A stretch of 64,000 nucleotides of DNA from Escherichia coli (GTDB taxonomy: Bacteria > Pseudomonadota > Gammaproteobacteria > Enterobacterales > Enterobacteriaceae): assembly GCF_017348835.2 (NCBI RefSeq), contig NZ_CP071375.1, one strand, 5' to 3'. The notes under the pieces were generated by a model. It saw only the letters and a list, made by a program, of their open reading frames with translations, was not told the origin of the DNA and did no database searches. Positions 1-18,911 of the stretch are shown here, one piece after another. Position numbers and translations under genes: made by a program. Numbering within the stretch: position 1 is the stretch's first letter; every line of letters begins with the position of its first letter.

Positions 1-1749
1 TACGCTTAACGGCTCCCACGGTTTGAGAGTCATCCATGCGGTCATTGTCTGCGTTGGCAGATCGGTTATCTTGCCGATGTCTTTGCGTTTGGCGTCAGCG
101 TGGATCAGGGCGTAGCTCAATCCTACATCCAGTATATTGCTGATTTTCCCCTTAATACCGGCATCCAGACCGCTGTAATCCACCGTGCCGCTGTTCTGAT
201 TTTGAATGGTATCGGCATCAATATTGTGCGAGAGGATGGCATCACTCACCCGGTTATAGTAAACGCTGACCTCAAATCCCCAGTCGCGCGTGAAGGCACC
301 ATTCCAGGTTAAATCCACCCCGCGAGCGCGTTCCGGCTTGAGCTGCGGGTTAACAATCGCTATCTGGTTATACGCAGGTTTGGATGTGGTATAGCGTTCT
401 TTCAGCGTCGGAAAGCGTGTGCGGTCATAGTACGAAAGCGCCAGAGTGTCTTCATTGGCAAAGTGGTATTTCCCCATCACCTGCCAGTTAAAAGCTGACT
501 GATTGTTGTCGTCATAATGGGTGATGCTGCCATCTTTCTCATGTTTTTTCGCTTCTACGCTATCGCGCCAGTCATAGCTGATTCCAGCCACGACATCGAC
601 ATTATCGGCAGCAGCCCATTGATATTCACTGGCGAGCGACCAGGTACGATCTTCATAGCGATCGTAAGCGGCGTGCGGCGCACCTTTTTCCCGGTGTACG
701 TCATCTTTCCAGTTAACGGCAAACGACAGCAGATCGTTTTCACGCACATCGGCTGCCAGTTGTAATCCGGCACCGTCGCTGTAATCGGAATAATGGCTGT
801 AGCTGCCTTTTTTATTTTTCAAATCAGCCAGCGAGTTGTACATCATCAGCGTATTTTCAAAGGTGTCGCGATACAGCCGACTTTTCAGGGTAAAACGATC
901 GTTTAGTTGGGTCGTTCCCTGATAATAAAAACTTTCTTTGTCATACTCTGGCCACTGCCAGTAGCGTGATTTTTGACCACTATTTCCGCTGTATGGCGGG
1001 TTATCTTTTTCACCATCCTGCTTAATGTAAGTCAGTGTGTATTCATCGTTTTCACGTGGTGTAAATCCGAGCTTCACAATGCCGCGTTTATCATCAGCCG
1101 ATGAATTAATCATCTTGCCGTGGTTGCCTGCAATATCATTATTTACACCATGCGGCAGGCCGAGAAAATCCTGCTTTAGCTGGCTACCGCTGACTTGCAA
1201 ATACCCCAGATCGCTGCTGGCGGCAAATGAAGCATGCATATCGTAGGCATTGTCCTGGCTACGGCTCCATCCCTGGCGATATCCCAGACTTGCTTCCAGA
1301 GGTTTTGTTGGCTTCTGGGTGGTGATATTAATGGCTCCGCCCATCTGATTAGGCCCCTGAAGCAGCGACGAATACCCTTTGGAAACTTCGACTGCCCCCA
1401 GATTGTTGGTCAGAATCCGCGCCAGATCGAGGTTGCCGTCATAGGGAACATAAATGGGCACACCGTCGAAATAGACCGGCACCTGCCGACTATCAAAGCC
1501 ACGAACTTTTACCTGTTCTTCGTTGCGGCTGCCTGACTTTTGCAGCACCACGCCGGGGACGACACTTAATGCCTGAGCGACATTCTGTTTATCCAGGGCC
1601 TTCATGGTGGGTTGATCGAGAACGGTGGTCGTCGTCGATGATACCGGACTGGACCATACGGTCAGCGAGTCGCTCTCCTGAGCCGCTACGGCCTGCTGGG
1701 TAAAGGCAAGTGATAATGCTGTGCAGAGATAATGTTTTTTGAGTCTCAT
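1..1749 (-). CDS. TonB-dependent outer-membrane receptor (3' end beyond window start)
   Basis: Manual minus-strand translation from ATG at 1747-1749 reads MRLKKHYLCTALSLAFTQQAVAAQESDSLTVWSS... with no stop for 583 codons to position 1. Signal peptide, TonB-box-like DSLTVWS and plug-domain-like motifs (VRGFDSRQVPVYFDGVPI) are present. Absent from ORF track because there is no stop in the window. Confidence 0.75.
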   Translation of the reverse strand, partial: MRLKKHYLCTALSLAFTQQAVAAQESDSLTVWSSPVSSTTTTVLDQPTMKALDKQNVAQALSVVPGVVLQKSGSRNEEQVKVRGFDSRQVPVYFDGVPIYVPYDGNLDLARILTNNLGAVEVSKGYSSLLQGPNQMGGAINITTQKPTKPLEASLGYRQGWSRSQDNAYDMHASFAASSDLGYLQVSGSQLKQDFLGLPHGVNNDIAGNHGKMINSSADDKRGIVKLGFTPRENDEYTLTYIKQDGEKDNPPYSGNSGQKSRYWQWPEYDKESFYYQGTTQLNDRFTLKSRLYRDTFENTLMMYNSLADLKNKKGSYSHYSDYSDGAGLQLAADVRENDLLSFAVNWKDDVHREKGAPHAAYDRYEDRTWSLASEYQWAAADNVDVVAGISYDWRDSVEAKKHEKDGSITHYDDNNQSAFNWQVMGKYHFANEDTLALSYYDRTRFPTLKERYTTSKPAYNQIAIVNPQLKPERARGVDLTWNGAFTRDWGFEVSVYYNRVSDAILSHNIDADTIQNQNSGTVDYSGLDAGIKGKISNILDVGLSYALIHADAKRKDIGKITDLPTQTMTAWMTLKPWEPLSV

Positions 1750-13956: not shown

Positions 13957-16842
13957 TTAAAAGCTGAAGCGATATCCTCCGTTGACTTGCTTCTGATCAA
14001 AGAGGTTACCCTGCGTGTAATCCGCTTCGAGGTAGAATGTGTGCTGTTTGTTATACTGTGCACTGACTCCCACGCCGTTATTCCAGCCATTACCTTTGAA
14101 ACTGTACTTCTCCCGGGAGTTGTTCAACAGATATTCTGTATCCCCTGAAAACTCGCGGATAGCGCCAGTCTTCACATACATATTCAGCTGGCTGTTGCCT
14201 GCGGTGATGTCATATCCCAGTATCATACTGGCACGCCCCAGCAGCGATTCGTAGTGATTCAGATGTATATTGAGGCCATTACTCGCCTTCATAGCCATCT
14301 CATTCTGGTGGCTGTATGTGAGCTGGGTTTGCGGCTCTATATAGAACCCATAACCAGTAGGGGTCAGGTTGAATCTCTGCCCGGCTTCCAGGGAGATGCT
14401 CAATCCATTCGCAGTGCCGTTGGCGTTAACGCCGTTGTTCTGACTGTCCCGTACGTGGAAACTATTTTTCTGGCGCGATGCTTTTACAACGAGATCGCTG
14501 TAAAAACCGCTGTGTGCCATGTAACTGGCGTACATTCCCATATAGTCTGAACGTGCGGTACCGTCGCCTCCGCTATAGTCCGGCGATGCATGTGTTGAGC
14601 CAATATACAGACCGACATACAACGGCATTTCATCAGAGAGACGTTTATCCCCACCAAACTGGATACCGCTGTAACCCATGTCAAAGCCGCTCAGTTTGCC
14701 ACTGGCGAAGGAGTCCAGGCTTCCCCCATAACTGCGCAGCCAGATATTACCGTCTTTACTCTGATTTCGCAGGTCACCCATCCGTTGCATCAGCGTACGG
14801 TTTTCAACATAGTTCAATAAGTAACCAACATTGAGATAATTGCCGCCAGCATCTGCGGTCGTGGTGGGTTTAGGTGTGGGCGTGGGGGTAGGCGTAGGAT
14901 CGGGTTCAGGCGTAGGATCGGGGTTGACTATGGGAGGCTGAGCGGGAGCCGGCGTTGGTTCAGGATTTGGAGTCGGCTCCGGAATTGTCCCGGAAGCATA
15001 AAGCTCCCAGTTAGTGCCATTTTTACGCACATCGTACAGATATCCTCCCAACTCAACCTGAGAAGACGCGCTGAACGAGGCCGCGCCGTCAGTGGTTTTT
15101 ACCACTGTCAGAACTTCATTTCCCGTTGTGGCTTCGCTGCCCTGGTTACGGATAGCCAATACATGATTACCAGCACTACTCCCGCTGATATTCAATAAAT
15201 CCCCTTTATTATTAACGCCATTACCCTCGCCAACAACATCAGCACGCATAATAAAGGTACTGTTACCGCTCAGGTTCTCTACGTTTAATGTGGTAAATGT
15301 GCCGGCAGTTGATGCGTGGCTGGCAAAATCGACAGTTGAATGGCTCAGCGCCAGCGTGTCGAGATTAGAATTACTTGTTACGTTCCAGACGCTGTTATTC
15401 ATTGCAACGTCCAGTTTCCCGTCATTGACATTATCGCTAAGGGAGGAACCTGTCCAAGCCGACCCAGGGTGCATATCCAGATTGATTAGCCCACCTTTGG
15501 AGAGAACGCTACCGTTGATAAGCATACGACCCGAAGCGTTGATGCGGCTGGCGGCATAACCATCGTCATGTTGCGTTGCGATGGCCATCTGGTCGGGTGT
15601 ACTCATATCAATGACCAGATCGCTCGTGAGGTCGATCTGGCTGTTGGTCATGGCATAAATCCCCCTGGCTCCTGCCGCGCCGGTGATAGCCAAACTGTCT
15701 CCGGTTATTCTACCGCCGCTGAGCGCCCACAAACCCAGCGCCAGACTGCCATTACGATCAACCGTAATATCGGTATTTTGCATGTTGATAACAGCCGTTG
15801 CCGTCTGGGCCGAGGCACCATAAGAACCGCCGGAAAAGATGCTGTTTCGTTGCGCTGCCGTGCCAGAAAAATTGATTGTCGCGTCTGAACCACTGGCTAC
15901 GAGACCACCGCCCTGCGCGGAAGAAATATGGCTATCTGCACCGATAGTGGTTGTACCACCACGAACTTCGACGCCATTGGCCGCGGCTCCAGTTACATCA
16001 ACAGTGAGTGCATTCGCGCTAACCTGGCCAAAGCTCCAGAGGCCGTGTGCATTATCGCCACTGGTTTTAATGGAACTGTTTGTTCCGAGATCGACAACAG
16101 AGTTTTTCTGTACGTTTATCCCCATGGCGCTGTAACCCTGAACATCGATTGTCAGGTCTGTCGCCGTAAAACGCGCAGCACCATTGGCGTTATTGCCGTT
16201 GAGACCACCGATATAAACACCTGTACTTCCATCGGTCTTGATTTTACTTCCGCTTCCAAGATCGACACTGGTGCCATAGTCATTGATGGTTAGGCCTATA
16301 CCGTTCGAGTTTTCAATGGTGAATTGAGTGGCTGTTAGTGTTGAGCTATGCCCAATAATGATGCCGTCATCGTTACTCTTAATGGTGCTGCCTGTGCCTA
16401 AGTCAGCATGGGTATAGTCACCAATTAAATTAATGCCGATGGCAGAGGTTTGACCAACAACATCTACTGTGAGTCGGTTAGCTGTCAGGGAGCTGTTTTT
16501 GCCCTGAATAATGATTCCTTTTGCATATCCAGAGGCGTCGTTGACATTGACGGTGACATCATTACCCAGGTTGATATTGCCAGGCGTGTTTCCTGCTGGG
16601 GTCATTACACCATAGAGGTTTCCTGATGGATCGGCGGTATCTCCTGTAATTCTGTCACCATCATTAATAGTAATATTGGTGCCATATTGACTTCCTGTAT
16701 CAGCAGCTATCAGCAGGGGGGAAAAGATAATTGCATTCAAACCAATAGCGCCAAATTTTATCAGTTGAATTGAGGGCGAACGGATTTTTAATTCAGCGAG
16801 ACGATCGGCTTTGGTATTCCCATTGTGTTGTTTGATGCCCAT
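13957..16842 (-). CDS. ycgV: AIDA-like autotransporter adhesin
   Basis: 961 aa; Gly/Thr/Asn-rich passenger repeats, Pro/Thr-rich linker PEPTPNPEPTPAPAQPP...TPTPTPTPKP, C-terminal beta-barrel ending ...GYRFSF. Confidence 0.9.
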   Translation of the reverse strand: MGIKQHNGNTKADRLAELKIRSPSIQLIKFGAIGLNAIIFSPLLIAADTGSQYGTNITINDGDRITGDTADPSGNLYGVMTPAGNTPGNINLGNDVTVNVNDASGYAKGIIIQGKNSSLTANRLTVDVVGQTSAIGINLIGDYTHADLGTGSTIKSNDDGIIIGHSSTLTATQFTIENSNGIGLTINDYGTSVDLGSGSKIKTDGSTGVYIGGLNGNNANGAARFTATDLTIDVQGYSAMGINVQKNSVVDLGTNSSIKTSGDNAHGLWSFGQVSANALTVDVTGAAANGVEVRGGTTTIGADSHISSAQGGGLVASGSDATINFSGTAAQRNSIFSGGSYGASAQTATAVINMQNTDITVDRNGSLALGLWALSGGRITGDSLAITGAAGARGIYAMTNSQIDLTSDLVIDMSTPDQMAIATQHDDGYAASRINASGRMLINGSVLSKGGLINLDMHPGSAWTGSSLSDNVNDGKLDVAMNNSVWNVTSNSNLDTLALSHSTVDFASHASTAGTFTTLNVENLSGNSTFIMRADVVGEGNGVNNKGDLLNISGSSAGNHVLAIRNQGSEATTGNEVLTVVKTTDGAASFSASSQVELGGYLYDVRKNGTNWELYASGTIPEPTPNPEPTPAPAQPPIVNPDPTPEPDPTPTPTPTPKPTTTADAGGNYLNVGYLLNYVENRTLMQRMGDLRNQSKDGNIWLRSYGGSLDSFASGKLSGFDMGYSGIQFGGDKRLSDEMPLYVGLYIGSTHASPDYSGGDGTARSDYMGMYASYMAHSGFYSDLVVKASRQKNSFHVRDSQNNGVNANGTANGLSISLEAGQRFNLTPTGYGFYIEPQTQLTYSHQNEMAMKASNGLNIHLNHYESLLGRASMILGYDITAGNSQLNMYVKTGAIREFSGDTEYLLNNSREKYSFKGNGWNNGVGVSAQYNKQHTFYLEADYTQGNLFDQKQVNGGYRFSF

Positions 16843-17012
16843 ACCACTCCTATATAGTACCCAGGCTATGGGTCTATGGATTTTGTCATTTTGTTTAAGT
16901 CAATGAATAATATCCTCTTATCATCATGATATTTGTATGGTGCAATCATGATGAGCTTTGAACCGCCCCGGAAATCCTGGAGACTAAACTCCCTGAGAAA
17001 GAGGTAAACAGG

Positions 17013-17339
17013 ATGACTAAAAATACTCGTTTTTCCCCCGAAGTCCGTCAGCGGGCGATTCGTATGGTTCTGGAAAGTCAGGATGAATATGACTCACAGT
17101 GGGCGGCAATTTGTTCCATTGCCCCAAAGATTGGCTGTACGCCGGAGACTCTGCGTGTCTGGGTTCGCCAGCATGAGCGGGATACCGGGAGTGGTGATGG
17201 TGGACTCACCACCGCTGAACGTCAGCGTCTGAAAGAGCTGGAACGTGAAAATCGTGAACTGCGCCGCAGTAACGATATCCTTCGCCAGGCTTCCGCTTAT
17301 TTTGCGAAGGCGGAGTTCGACCGCCTCTGGAAAAAATAA
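17013..17339 (+). CDS. IS3-family transposase OrfA (HTH/leucine zipper)
   Basis: 108 aa [22 protein letters not shown]... recalled as IS629 OrfA; ends in A-rich slippery run ggaaaaaataa. Confidence 0.88.
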
Positions 17340-18226
17340 TGCCACTGCTGGATAAGCTGCGTGAGCAGTACGGGGTCGGACCGGTATGCAGCGAACTGCA
17401 TATTGCCCCGTCAACGTATTACCATTGTCAGCAACAGCGACATCATCCGGATAAACGCAGTGCCCGTGCGCAGCACGATGACTGGCTGAAGAAAGAGATA
17501 CAGCGCGTATACGATGAAAATCACCAGGTATACGGTGTGCGTAAAGTCTGGCGTCAGTTGTTACGGGAAGGTATCAGAGTGGCCAGATGCACTGTGGCAC
17601 GTCTCATGGCAGTTATGGGACTTGCCGGTGTTCTCCGGGGTAAAAAGGTCCGCACTACCGTCAGCCGGAAAGCCGTTGCCGCATGCGACCGCGTAAACCG
17701 TCAGTTCGTGGCAGAACGTCCAGACCAGTTGTGGGTGGCTGATTTTACCTGGGTAAGCACATGGCAGGGCTTCGTTTATGTGGCGTTCATCATTGATGTG
17801 TTCGCCGGATACATCGTGGGATGGCAGGTCTCATCATCCATGGAAACAACATTCGTGCTGGATGCACTGGAGCAGGCGTTGTGGGCCCGTCGGCCGTCCG
17901 GCACAATCCATCACAGTGATAAAGGTTCTCAGTATGTATCGCTGGCCTACACGCAGCGGCTTAAGGAAGCCGGATTACTGGCATCAACAGGGAGTACTGG
18001 CGACTCGTATGACAACGCGATGGCTGAGAGCATCAATGGTCTTTACAAAGCGGAGGTAATACACCGTAAGAGCTGGAAAAACCGTGCAGAAGTGGAACTG
18101 GCCACACTCACGTGGGTGGACTGGTATAACAATCGACGATTGCTGGAAAGGCTGGGCCATATTCCTCCGGCAGAAGCAGAAAAAGCTTATTATGCTTCCA
18201 TCGGAAATAATGATCTGGCAGCCTGA
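17339..18226 (+). CDS. IS3-family transposase OrfB (DDE catalytic domain), expressed as OrfAB by -1 frameshift
   Basis: 295 aa [15 protein letters not shown]... in -1 frame relative to OrfA; DDE-type motifs (HSDKGSQY, DNAMAES). Confidence 0.88.
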   Translation: MPLLDKLREQYGVGPVCSELHIAPSTYYHCQQQRHHPDKRSARAQHDDWLKKEIQRVYDENHQVYGVRKVWRQLLREGIRVARCTVARLMAVMGLAGVLRGKKVRTTVSRKAVAACDRVNRQFVAERPDQLWVADFTWVSTWQGFVYVAFIIDVFAGYIVGWQVSSSMETTFVLDALEQALWARRPSGTIHHSDKGSQYVSLAYTQRLKEAGLLASTGSTGDSYDNAMAESINGLYKAEVIHRKSWKNRAEVELATLTWVDWYNNRRLLERLGHIPPAEAEKAYYASIGNNDLAA

Positions 18227-18911
18227 GTTCACAGATAAAACACTCTCCAGGAAACCCGGGGCGGTTCACTTCTCTGAGAATAATTCTCTATTACCGGGCA
18301 AAATCAGGAACACAGGAATTAATATATATTTAACATCCCCCTTACAAAGGTGAGTTTATATCGAGTTATTCCCTAAGTTGTCGTTACTTATTCCAATTCG
18401 TTACTATGAATATGGCAAAAATATTACAACAAACAGCGGTTAAAAAATTTGGTGAAGATTTTTGTAATAATCCTAATTAGTTATGGGATTTTCGCTTGAT
18501 GTATCTGCATAACAAAAACAATATGCGCCATTTTTGCATTACTAATAAGAAAAAGCAAAAAACATCGATATTCATTTTTGGTCAATGGGTTTTCTGGCCT
18601 ATCGTTGTTATTGTGCTACTGGTTATCATTTTCATCTTGCCAGGATCGCACGTAATCACGTTATTCGGGGACTTTATCTGCGGGATATTACCCTTCAGGT
18701 AAGTCCTTTTCTCGCCAGCATATTGGAGCGTGATCAATATTGATCAGCTGTGAAGGGGGCTGATGTGTAGTGGAACAAAAACTGACGTTATATCACTGCT
18801 AATGAGATATCCGTCATCTGAACACTTATGTCTTTAATTATTTTGGTGGTCACTGTAGGCAATAAGCACAAAAGTGTAGGATGTTACAAGAATGATTAGG
18901 ACTCGGTGAAA

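Follow-up and report, generated by a model that had tools for sequence, protein, structure and literature searches.

The Pro/Thr-rich linker of the Escherichia coli autotransporter YcgV differs in repeat number among strains

Does the Pro/Thr-rich linker of the autotransporter gene ycgV, put forward in the original prediction as a length-variable hotspot whose short direct repeats are prone to slippage, differ in length among Escherichia coli strains, and how would such differences arise? The question was addressed starting from a stretch of 64,000 nucleotides of E. coli DNA (the window), in which the gene is found as follows:

13957-16842, minus strand: ycgV coding sequence, 961 aa, intact, predicted pertactin-type classical autotransporter (from the open reading frame list and translation)

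This open reading frame has no internal stops, in agreement with the claim that the autotransporter is intact here, and its translation includes exactly the peptide PEPTPNPEPTPAPAQPPIVNPDPTPEPDPTPTPTPTPKP. The annotated ycgV of E. coli PE164 is 100% identical to it, and its neighbours in the window are ychF on one side and dhaR on the other, a position that agrees with ycgV identity; by this identity to PE164 and the order ychF - ycgV - dhaR, the gene can be regarded as the ycgV orthologue. The K-12 gene (b1202, 955 aa), which encodes a biofilm-associated autotransporter of the AIDA-I/Ag43 group, occupies the same locus with 97.4% nucleotide identity. An IS element lies 116 nt upstream of the ycgV start codon in the window. 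The original statement that some lineages carry a disrupted ycgV is borne out: the gene is frameshifted, truncated or missing in other strains, with frameshift pseudogenes annotated as such, a deletion in O157:H7 removes its 3' half plus dhaR, and about 24% of genomes are without any ycgV match. The inactivating frameshifts map outside the linker.

From a structural perspective, YcgV matches the Pfam profiles Pertactin and Autotransporter beta-domain as well as NCBIfam TIGR01414 (E=4e-107), and the linker and its surroundings are laid out as follows:

14998-15363, minus strand: pertactin-like C-terminal passenger (autochaperone) domain, aa 494-615 (Pfam PF03212, E=6.7e-38)
14863-14982, minus strand: Pro/Thr-rich linker tract, aa 621-660, with 19 Pro and 8 Thr among 40 residues; predicted disordered spacer
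14779-14862, minus strand: alpha-helical segment, aa 661-688 (AlphaFold helices, model residues 181-208), predicted to thread the pore of the barrel
13960-14745, minus strand: 12-stranded outer-membrane beta-barrel, aa 700-961 (Pfam PF03797, E=2.9e-37)

The domain at aa 494-615 aligns to the C-terminal part of the pertactin structures 1DAB and 2IOU, and in the AlphaFold model (pTM 0.76) beta-strands reach aa 616, followed by coil at aa 617-659 with pLDDT <50 at aa 621-653. On both sides of this coil the model is confident, with the beta-helix on one side and the helix and barrel on the other, and in the comparison with the PDB the linker likewise falls in the stretch that separates the pertactin-domain match from the matches to barrel and helix. 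The translocator constructs of Hbp, EspP and BrkA start aligning at aa 665-684, those of EspP and Hbp containing the helix, whose sequence TTTADAGGNYLNVGYLLNY... is kept across genera. The barrel itself is modelled with 12 long strands (pLDDT about 90), its PDB matches being the barrels of BrkA, EspP, Vag8 and Hbp. YcgV is thus predicted to have the traits of a classical (type Va) autotransporter, namely a 12-strand barrel, a pre-barrel helix and a beta-helical passenger with autochaperone. It has been grouped with the "biofilm-forming AT adhesins", with no structure published (PMC9289746). The signal peptide of K-12 YcgV is not predicted with confidence by SignalP 6.0, and an anchor made of YcgV without residues 1-621, hence starting at the linker, works for surface display (PMC13101318).

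The predicted Pro/Thr-rich repetitive peptide, PEPTPNPEPTPAPAQPPIVNPDPTPEPDPTPTPTPTPKP, is indeed present at aa 621-659, corresponding to window positions 14866-14982; the interval originally given, 14830-14960, contains the repeat core but is about 25-35 nt off. The linker units were defined by codon alignment of alleles, and the core consists of three imperfect tandem units of 18 nt (6 aa each, P-x-P-T-P-x):

14905-14922, minus strand: repeat unit 1, CCCGATCCTACGCCTGAA, encoding PDPTPE, aa 641-646; has an exact 15-mer in common with unit 2
14887-14904, minus strand: repeat unit 2, CCCGATCCTACGCCTACC, encoding PDPTPT, aa 647-652; missing from 2-unit alleles
14869-14886, minus strand: repeat unit 3 (degenerate), CCCACGCCCACACCTAAA, encoding PTPTPK, aa 653-658; placed by codon-level allele alignment

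Units 1 and 2 share the exact 15-mer AGGCGTAGGATCGGG, which starts on the plus strand at 14890 and 14908; throughout the 64-kb window no other exact 15-mer recurs at a distance of up to 60 nt, and 20 shuffles gave none. Of the two short repeats originally named, ggcgtagg occurs twice on the plus strand (14891 and 14909), both times within this 15-mer, while ccacgcc occurs once only and is no repeat unit, the true unit being 18 nt long. Tandem Repeats Finder at score 30 reported no array in the linker, because only about two copies are near-identical and the repeat is too imperfect. In L012-type alleles the sequence CCCGCTCC is common to units 2 and 3 and is where the short allele of the K-12 type has its junction; the alignment gap of K-12-type alleles accordingly falls at window positions 14883-14900 or 14888-14905. 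Collapse between units 1 and 2 corresponds to the short-B and short-C alleles and to the deletion in strain LSU61, and duplication corresponds to the 4-unit allele. Two junction registers exist, a unit 1/2 collapse and a unit 2/3 collapse.

Comparison of linker length among alleles revealed polymorphism, the intact ycgV genes of 5426 complete E. coli genomes being of four lengths, 2826, 2868, 2886 and 2904 nt (941, 955, 961 and 967 aa). In the 23 E. coli ycgV alleles aligned in full, picked partly for linker divergence, all in-frame length differences lie inside the Pro-rich tract, at window positions 14883-14947; the other indels are 1-bp or 11-bp frameshifts only, in annotated pseudogenes. 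All linker length variants are in frame and annotated intact. Of the 5426 genomes surveyed, the linker was found in 3940, and identity bands separated about 1308 full-length from 2633 shorter copies. Since BLAST split and re-joined the alignments of longer queries, which confounded these bands, junction-specific queries of 34-45 nt were adopted, for which the 28-nt seed of megablast can come from the target junction alone. The 2-unit junction PDPTPE|PAPTPK of the K-12 type (short-A) was counted in this way in 2228 genomes, PDPTPN|PTPTPK (short-B, 2 units) in 302 and PDPTPA|PAPTPK (short-C, 2 units) in 31, with about 71 shorter alleles left unassigned to a junction type. Three-unit alleles are carried by about 1300 genomes and the 4-unit junction by 6, of which 2 were verified at 2904 nt (967 aa); the 941-aa allele comes from 1 isolate. 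A synthetic 4-unit allele of the L012 type had no match at >=99%, and the real 4-unit alleles were retrieved by a junction query built on the PDPTPE unit. The window allele has 3 units (961 aa) and that of K-12 has 2 (955 aa); the linker haplotype of the window is rare, only 3 records being >=99% identical over 211 nt.

Several alleles reveal recent events. The allele of LSU61 (O157:H7) equals a typical O157:H7 allele minus exactly 18 nt, the gene being otherwise unchanged, and its junction has a direct repeat of 15 nt. The same junction is present in other short-B alleles, yet outside the linker these are 51-56 nt different from LSU61; the same 18-nt deletion has thus arisen at least twice, on unrelated allele backgrounds. 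Strain KK19-02 carries the short-C allele minus a further 42 nt, removed at a 12/13 direct repeat, and in HMDUC-17 (1 isolate), which shows no difference from K-12 outside the linker, unit 2 has been overwritten by a copy of unit 1. The linker both contracts and expands among strains, and the length-change junctions sit in direct repeats (15 nt exact, or 12/13), as expected under slippage or unequal exchange and as the original prediction of slippage-prone repeats implied. With regard to the old common alleles, no sampled allele minus one unit reproduces any of them exactly over the whole linker, because other linker SNPs are present, which could have been shuffled by E. coli recombination; for this reason no polarity is claimed between 2 and 3 units in these alleles. 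The outgroup scan, limited to a single genome for each species, yielded only one Citrobacter MAG, two paralogues from Leminorella and two contigs that were contaminants, and no other Escherichia species, so that it does not fix the ancestral unit number. With about 7 events inferred across about 3940 genomes, the population data suggest change on an evolutionary timescale; the term hotspot is apt relative to the rest of ycgV, but not in the sense of rapid switching. A phase-variable contingency locus was considered and rejected, the unit being 18 nt (not 1-8 nt), imperfect, present in 2-4 copies, in frame and apparently changing at a low rate.

Taken as a whole, these data are probably best explained by an unconstrained Pro-rich spacer whose imperfect 18-nt repeats recurrently gain and lose units. 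The spacer, or stalk, would join the beta-helical passenger of YcgV to the alpha-helix that is predicted to plug the outer-membrane barrel. Because imperfect tandem units of six codons, together with further direct repeats of short length, encode the segment, whole units may now and then be deleted, duplicated or overwritten through replication slippage or unequal exchange between repeats. Since the length of the unit is divisible by three and there is no fold for a change to disturb, the products would stay in frame and functional and could persist, changes of linker length being presumably tolerated in a near-neutral manner.

A different history, in which a single ancient indel was followed by point mutation and homologous recombination, leaving a stable dimorphism and no mutational hotspot, would agree with the two length classes that cover >99% of genomes and with the old alleles having no exact parent-minus-unit derivation, and the fairly close short-B and short-C backgrounds (19-27 differences) could share one event; it is nevertheless very unlikely, given the two different junction registers, the background of LSU61 (identical to long O157:H7 alleles and 51-56 nt from other short-B alleles) and the other events described above, namely the deletion of another 42 nt, the expansion to 4 units and the conversion of one unit. 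The LSU61, KK19-02 and O169:H41 alleles contradict this history unless they are assembly artefacts. Such artefacts, arising in sequencing or assembly of a repetitive, GC-rich stretch, are conceivable for the rarest variants, KK19-02, LSU61 and HMDUC-17, each known from a single assembly, but as the source of the length differences they are extremely improbable, since the main alleles recur with identical junctions in 31 to 2228 independent complete genomes, every variant is in frame and repeat-flanked, and an 18-nt unit in 2-4 copies poses no difficulty whatever the read length.

Selection on the linker has also to be weighed, either diversifying or antigenic or acting on stalk length in relation to O-antigen or capsule thickness, as proposed for pertactin repeats. 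The tract is surface-proximal, genome scans have flagged ycgV as positively selected (PMC9110714), and linker nucleotide diversity is 0.047 vs 0.015-0.017 elsewhere in ycgV, a 3-fold excess that is inflated by the sampling for linker divergence. Among the same divergence-chosen alleles, the linker has 0.15 nonsynonymous variants per codon vs 0.06-0.09 elsewhere; however, the synonymous excess is even larger (0.275 vs 0.08-0.10 per codon in these alleles), which points instead to relaxed constraint, mutation or sampling bias. Moreover, misaligned repeats can mimic selection signals and ycgV is often lost or inactivated, and selection on the variation is accordingly judged unlikely. The narrower proposal of adaptive tuning, in which 6-aa units adjust the reach of the passenger through O-antigen or capsule and recurrent indels are selected, is more doubtful still; if it were true, linker alleles would track surface-polysaccharide type. 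One 6-aa unit would span about 2 nm if extended.

The reading of the linker as an indel-tolerant spacer can be set beside homologues and known systems. In other genera, homologue linkers measure 14-80 aa between conserved anchors, with the flanks kept, and repeat-unit indels are found in Pragia (29 vs 45 aa), Gilliamella (14 vs 26) and Morganella (27 vs 45). The YcgV tract starts directly after the domain aligned to P.69 pertactin C-terminal residues 399-534, and we take pertactin region 2 (R2) to occupy the same position, just after the domain matching those residues. The YcgV tract resembles R2 as a Pro-rich tandem repeat that sits where the passenger ends C-terminally, beyond the folded beta-helix, with copy number differing among alleles (2, 3 or 4 units); it differs in its imperfect unit of 6 aa (18 nt) in 2-4 copies, the pertactin unit being the PQP triplet, in having no sequence homology to the pertactin repeats, and in the lack of a vaccine or immune-selection context, the expression and role of YcgV in natural isolates being poorly known. 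The (EP)n(KP)n region of TonB is another Pro-rich extended spacer. To judge from its position and predicted disorder, the YcgV tract, Pro-rich and of low complexity, is probably a polyproline-II-like, rigid or elongated spacer of the same sort, although it has no homology with TonB or with the stalk of Streptococcus mutans P1, also a Pro-rich extended spacer (PMC8931430). In pertactin (Prn) of Bordetella pertussis, the number of repeats in region 2, (PQP)n, and region 1, (GGXXP)n, differs among alleles (PMC3279416; PMC8931430).

The repeat-driven length variation of YcgV is thus real but of an ordinary kind, already known from pertactin; it supplies the R1/R2 paradigm with an example from E. 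coli and opens no new question. The spacer between passenger and barrel emerges, now with counts, as the only part of ycgV that tolerates indels and is driven by repeats, and identical deletions recur in it independently. YcgV protein length (941, 955, 961 or 967 aa) is therefore unreliable as a lineage marker, and alignments across the linker can yield spurious signals of positive selection for ycgV. For users of YcgV as a display anchor, the alleles are evidence from nature that spacings of 30-56 residues between these conserved anchors can be accommodated.

The ycgV gene of the window is an uninterrupted open reading frame of 961 codons (13957-16842, minus strand; ORF list and translation), intact as originally predicted, and matches the ycgV annotated in E. 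coli PE164, a pig isolate, at 100% identity. It is flanked by ychF and dhaR, the same position that it occupies elsewhere. YcgV is classed among the biofilm-forming autotransporter adhesins, and its structure is not published (PMC9289746). Pfam recognizes a pertactin domain at aa 494-615 and, at aa 700-941, an autotransporter beta-domain; NCBIfam recognizes an autotransporter barrel model. The Pro/Thr-rich peptide quoted in the original prediction is found exactly at aa 621-659, encoded at 14866-14982, about 25-35 nt away from the location proposed for it (14830-14960). The Pro-rich tract counts 19 Pro and 8 Thr among 40 residues, and the DNA core of this linker consists of three imperfect 18-nt units:

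14905-14922, minus strand: unit 1, CCCGATCCTACGCCTGAA, encoding PDPTPE
14887-14904, minus strand: unit 2, CCCGATCCTACGCCTACC, encoding PDPTPT
14869-14886, minus strand: unit 3, encoding PTPTPK

Units 1 and 2 have in common an exact 15-mer, the sole one recurring at most 60 nt apart in the window (none in shuffles). Of the two short direct repeats that had been named, ggcgtagg lies inside this 15-mer, while ccacgcc occurs once only. The array was not detected by Tandem Repeats Finder because its copies are so few. The linker haplotype of the window (14800-15010) is rare, with only three records reaching 99% identity or more across 211 nt; other 3-unit alleles differ from it at about nine positions.

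Among 5426 complete E. coli genomes, ycgV was matched in 4118 (coverage of at least 80% in 3935), and a 211-nt query with the linker at its centre in 3940. About 1308 genomes showed at least 90% identity to this query (full-length linker), and 2633 fell into an 80-90% band that is 18 nt shorter; in all 59 full-coverage rows sampled, the span was 211 or 193 nt. Full reading of 23 E. coli alleles (the window and 22 fetched loci) placed all in-frame length differences at window 14883-14947, the remaining indels being 1-bp or 11-bp frameshifts in annotated pseudogenes. The linker thus varies in length among strains, as had been proposed.

Linker alleles of ycgV (genome counts from junction-specific seeds; 3-unit count from the 211-nt query; L-numbers are fetched loci)
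short-A, 2 units: PDPTPE-PAPTPK; K-12, BL21; 2228 genomes
short-B, 2 units: PDPTPN-PTPTPK; L013, L016, LSU61; 302 genomes
short-C, 2 units: PDPTPA-PAPTPK; L023, L024; 31 genomes
3-unit variants: PDPTPE-PDPTP(T/N/A)-P(T/A)PTPK and PDPTPE-PAPTPA-PAPTPK; window, typical O157:H7; about 1300 genomes
4-unit, 967 aa: PDPTPE-PDPTPE-PDPTPT-PTPTPK; O169:H41; 6 genomes, two verified
941-aa allele: further 42-nt deletion; KK19-02; 1 isolate

About 71 shorter alleles were assigned to none of these junction types. An 825-aa E. coli YcgV (P0003) has lost about 136 aa within the passenger by an in-frame deletion (DRNGSLA/LSHSTVDF), and therefore in-frame deletions outside the linker exist, at least once. Eight ycgV matches are on plasmid-labelled records; these may be chromosomal fragments with a wrong label or cases of genuine transfer.

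An assembly artefact is contradicted, since each of the main alleles occurs in tens to thousands of independent genomes. A single ancient indel plus recombination is likewise contradicted by three alleles. In LSU61 (O157:H7), ycgV is the typical O157:H7 allele minus 18 nt, the rest of the gene being identical; the deletion has 16 equivalent placements and is therefore flanked by a 15-nt direct repeat. Since the other short-B alleles differ from LSU61 by 51-56 nt outside the linker, this junction arose at least twice. KK19-02 is a short-C allele (background 4-6 nt apart) that has lost 42 nt at a direct repeat with 12/13 matching positions, CCAGC(T/C)CCCGCTC. The background of the 4-unit O169:H41 allele is nearest to the 3-unit type of the window (16-22 differences), and this allele is best read as an expansion. 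Furthermore, HMDUC-17 shows no difference from K-12 outside the linker, and three clustered substitutions have turned its second unit into a copy of the first (PDPTPE-PDPTPE), which we read as intra-array conversion or gain followed by loss. The common short alleles show two junction registers; no exact derivation of these old alleles was found among the sampled long ones. Altogether, the sequences point to no fewer than six or seven events, with loss, gain and conversion all represented. In Citrobacter, the sole near outgroup, the tract is still shorter and itself variable.

The likeliest explanation, which we hold with considerable confidence, is that short direct repeats undergo slipped-strand mispairing or unequal exchange. 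The encoded segment would have no fold to disrupt, and since each unit comprises six codons, the products stay in frame. The proneness to slippage originally suggested is supported by the repeat-flanked deletions of LSU61 and KK19-02 and by recurrence. That selection acts on stalk length or antigenicity is possible, if less likely, and finds no support in the present data. Phase variation was rejected: the array consists of a few long, imperfect units, the linker variants are all intact, and it is other lesions that inactivate ycgV.

From a structural perspective, the pertactin passenger structures 1DAB and 2IOU align to aa 479-616 and the Hbp, EspP and BrkA translocator constructs begin to align at aa 665-684 (PDB sequence matches), so that the tract falls in the unaligned gap. 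An AlphaFold model of aa 481-961 (29 homologues; mean pLDDT 83, pTM 0.76) shows beta-helix strands as far as aa 616, coil with pLDDT below 50 at aa 621-653, and helices at aa 661-688 followed by a confident 12-stranded barrel. The gap and the modelled coil together indicate that the tract is a predicted unstructured spacer linking the passenger to the pore-traversing helix. A display anchor without residues 1-621, hence starting at the tract, is functional (PMC13101318).

Among the sampled alleles, picked partly by linker divergence, nucleotide diversity is 0.047 in the linker vs. 0.015-0.017 in the rest of the gene, with 0.275 vs. 0.08-0.10 synonymous and 0.15 vs. 0.06-0.09 nonsynonymous variants per codon. 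Synonymous variation is elevated no less than nonsynonymous variation; given this and the choice of sample, we ascribe the excess to relaxed constraint together with sampling bias and do not take it as evidence for positive selection. The gene has been flagged by positive-selection scans (PMC9110714), a signal that repeat misalignment in the linker could inflate.

In homologues from other Enterobacterales and relatives, 14-80 aa separate the conserved anchors that flank the linker. Repeat-unit indels distinguish homologues within Pragia (29 vs. 45 aa), Gilliamella (14 vs. 26 aa, flanked by PITSS) and Morganella (27 vs. 45 aa), and one protein carries perfect PPDEKPT repeats. Leminorella grimontii (NZ_AUUA01000001, 864601-874108; L018, L019) has two ycgV-like paralogues in tandem, of 60% and 55% identity, whose Pro-rich linkers differ. 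Fragments 98-100% identical to E. coli ycgV in an Actinomycetes MAG contig (L020) and a 270-nt contig of Nocardioides malaquae (L021), both unrelated Actinobacteria, are most likely E. coli contamination of these public assemblies.

The originally stated disruption of ycgV in some lineages was also confirmed, by frameshifts, 3'-half deletion and absence. About 24% of the 5426 genomes show no match at all, and the inactivating lesions include 1-bp and 11-bp frameshifts. In pseudogenes, two distinct deletions of 11 bp were seen along with several single-base indels, all outside the linker (window-equivalent 14260-14270 in L003, 15258-15268 in L009, 16721 in L004, 15875 in L005); gene length is not divisible by three in about 3 of 38 sampled full-length genes. 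In O157:H7 Balcarce_24.2 (L006, 3001-4751), a deletion has taken away the 3' part of ycgV, from about nt 1630 onward, together with the whole of dhaR, the ycgV remnant being joined close to dhaK. The window carries an IS3-family element 116 nt upstream of the start codon of ycgV:

16959-18268: IS3-family element, 1310 nt, 3-bp target duplication
17013-17339, plus strand: transposase ORF, 108 aa, divergent from ycgV
17339-18226, plus strand: transposase ORF, 295 aa, divergent from ycgV

Its size and ORF lengths presumably resemble those of IS629/IS1203. Among the 5426 genomes this insertion site is found only in PE164, which has about 31 copies of the IS end; the insertion may alter ycgV expression.

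The literature search, of incomplete coverage, found no paper on ycgV linker polymorphism. Pertactin offers the nearest known parallel: the YcgV tract is found at the equivalent position, directly after the pertactin-like domain, and behaves in the same way, although the repeats are not homologous. The original observation is thus confirmed and its interpretation supported, and the linker variation is a further well-documented case of a known phenomenon.
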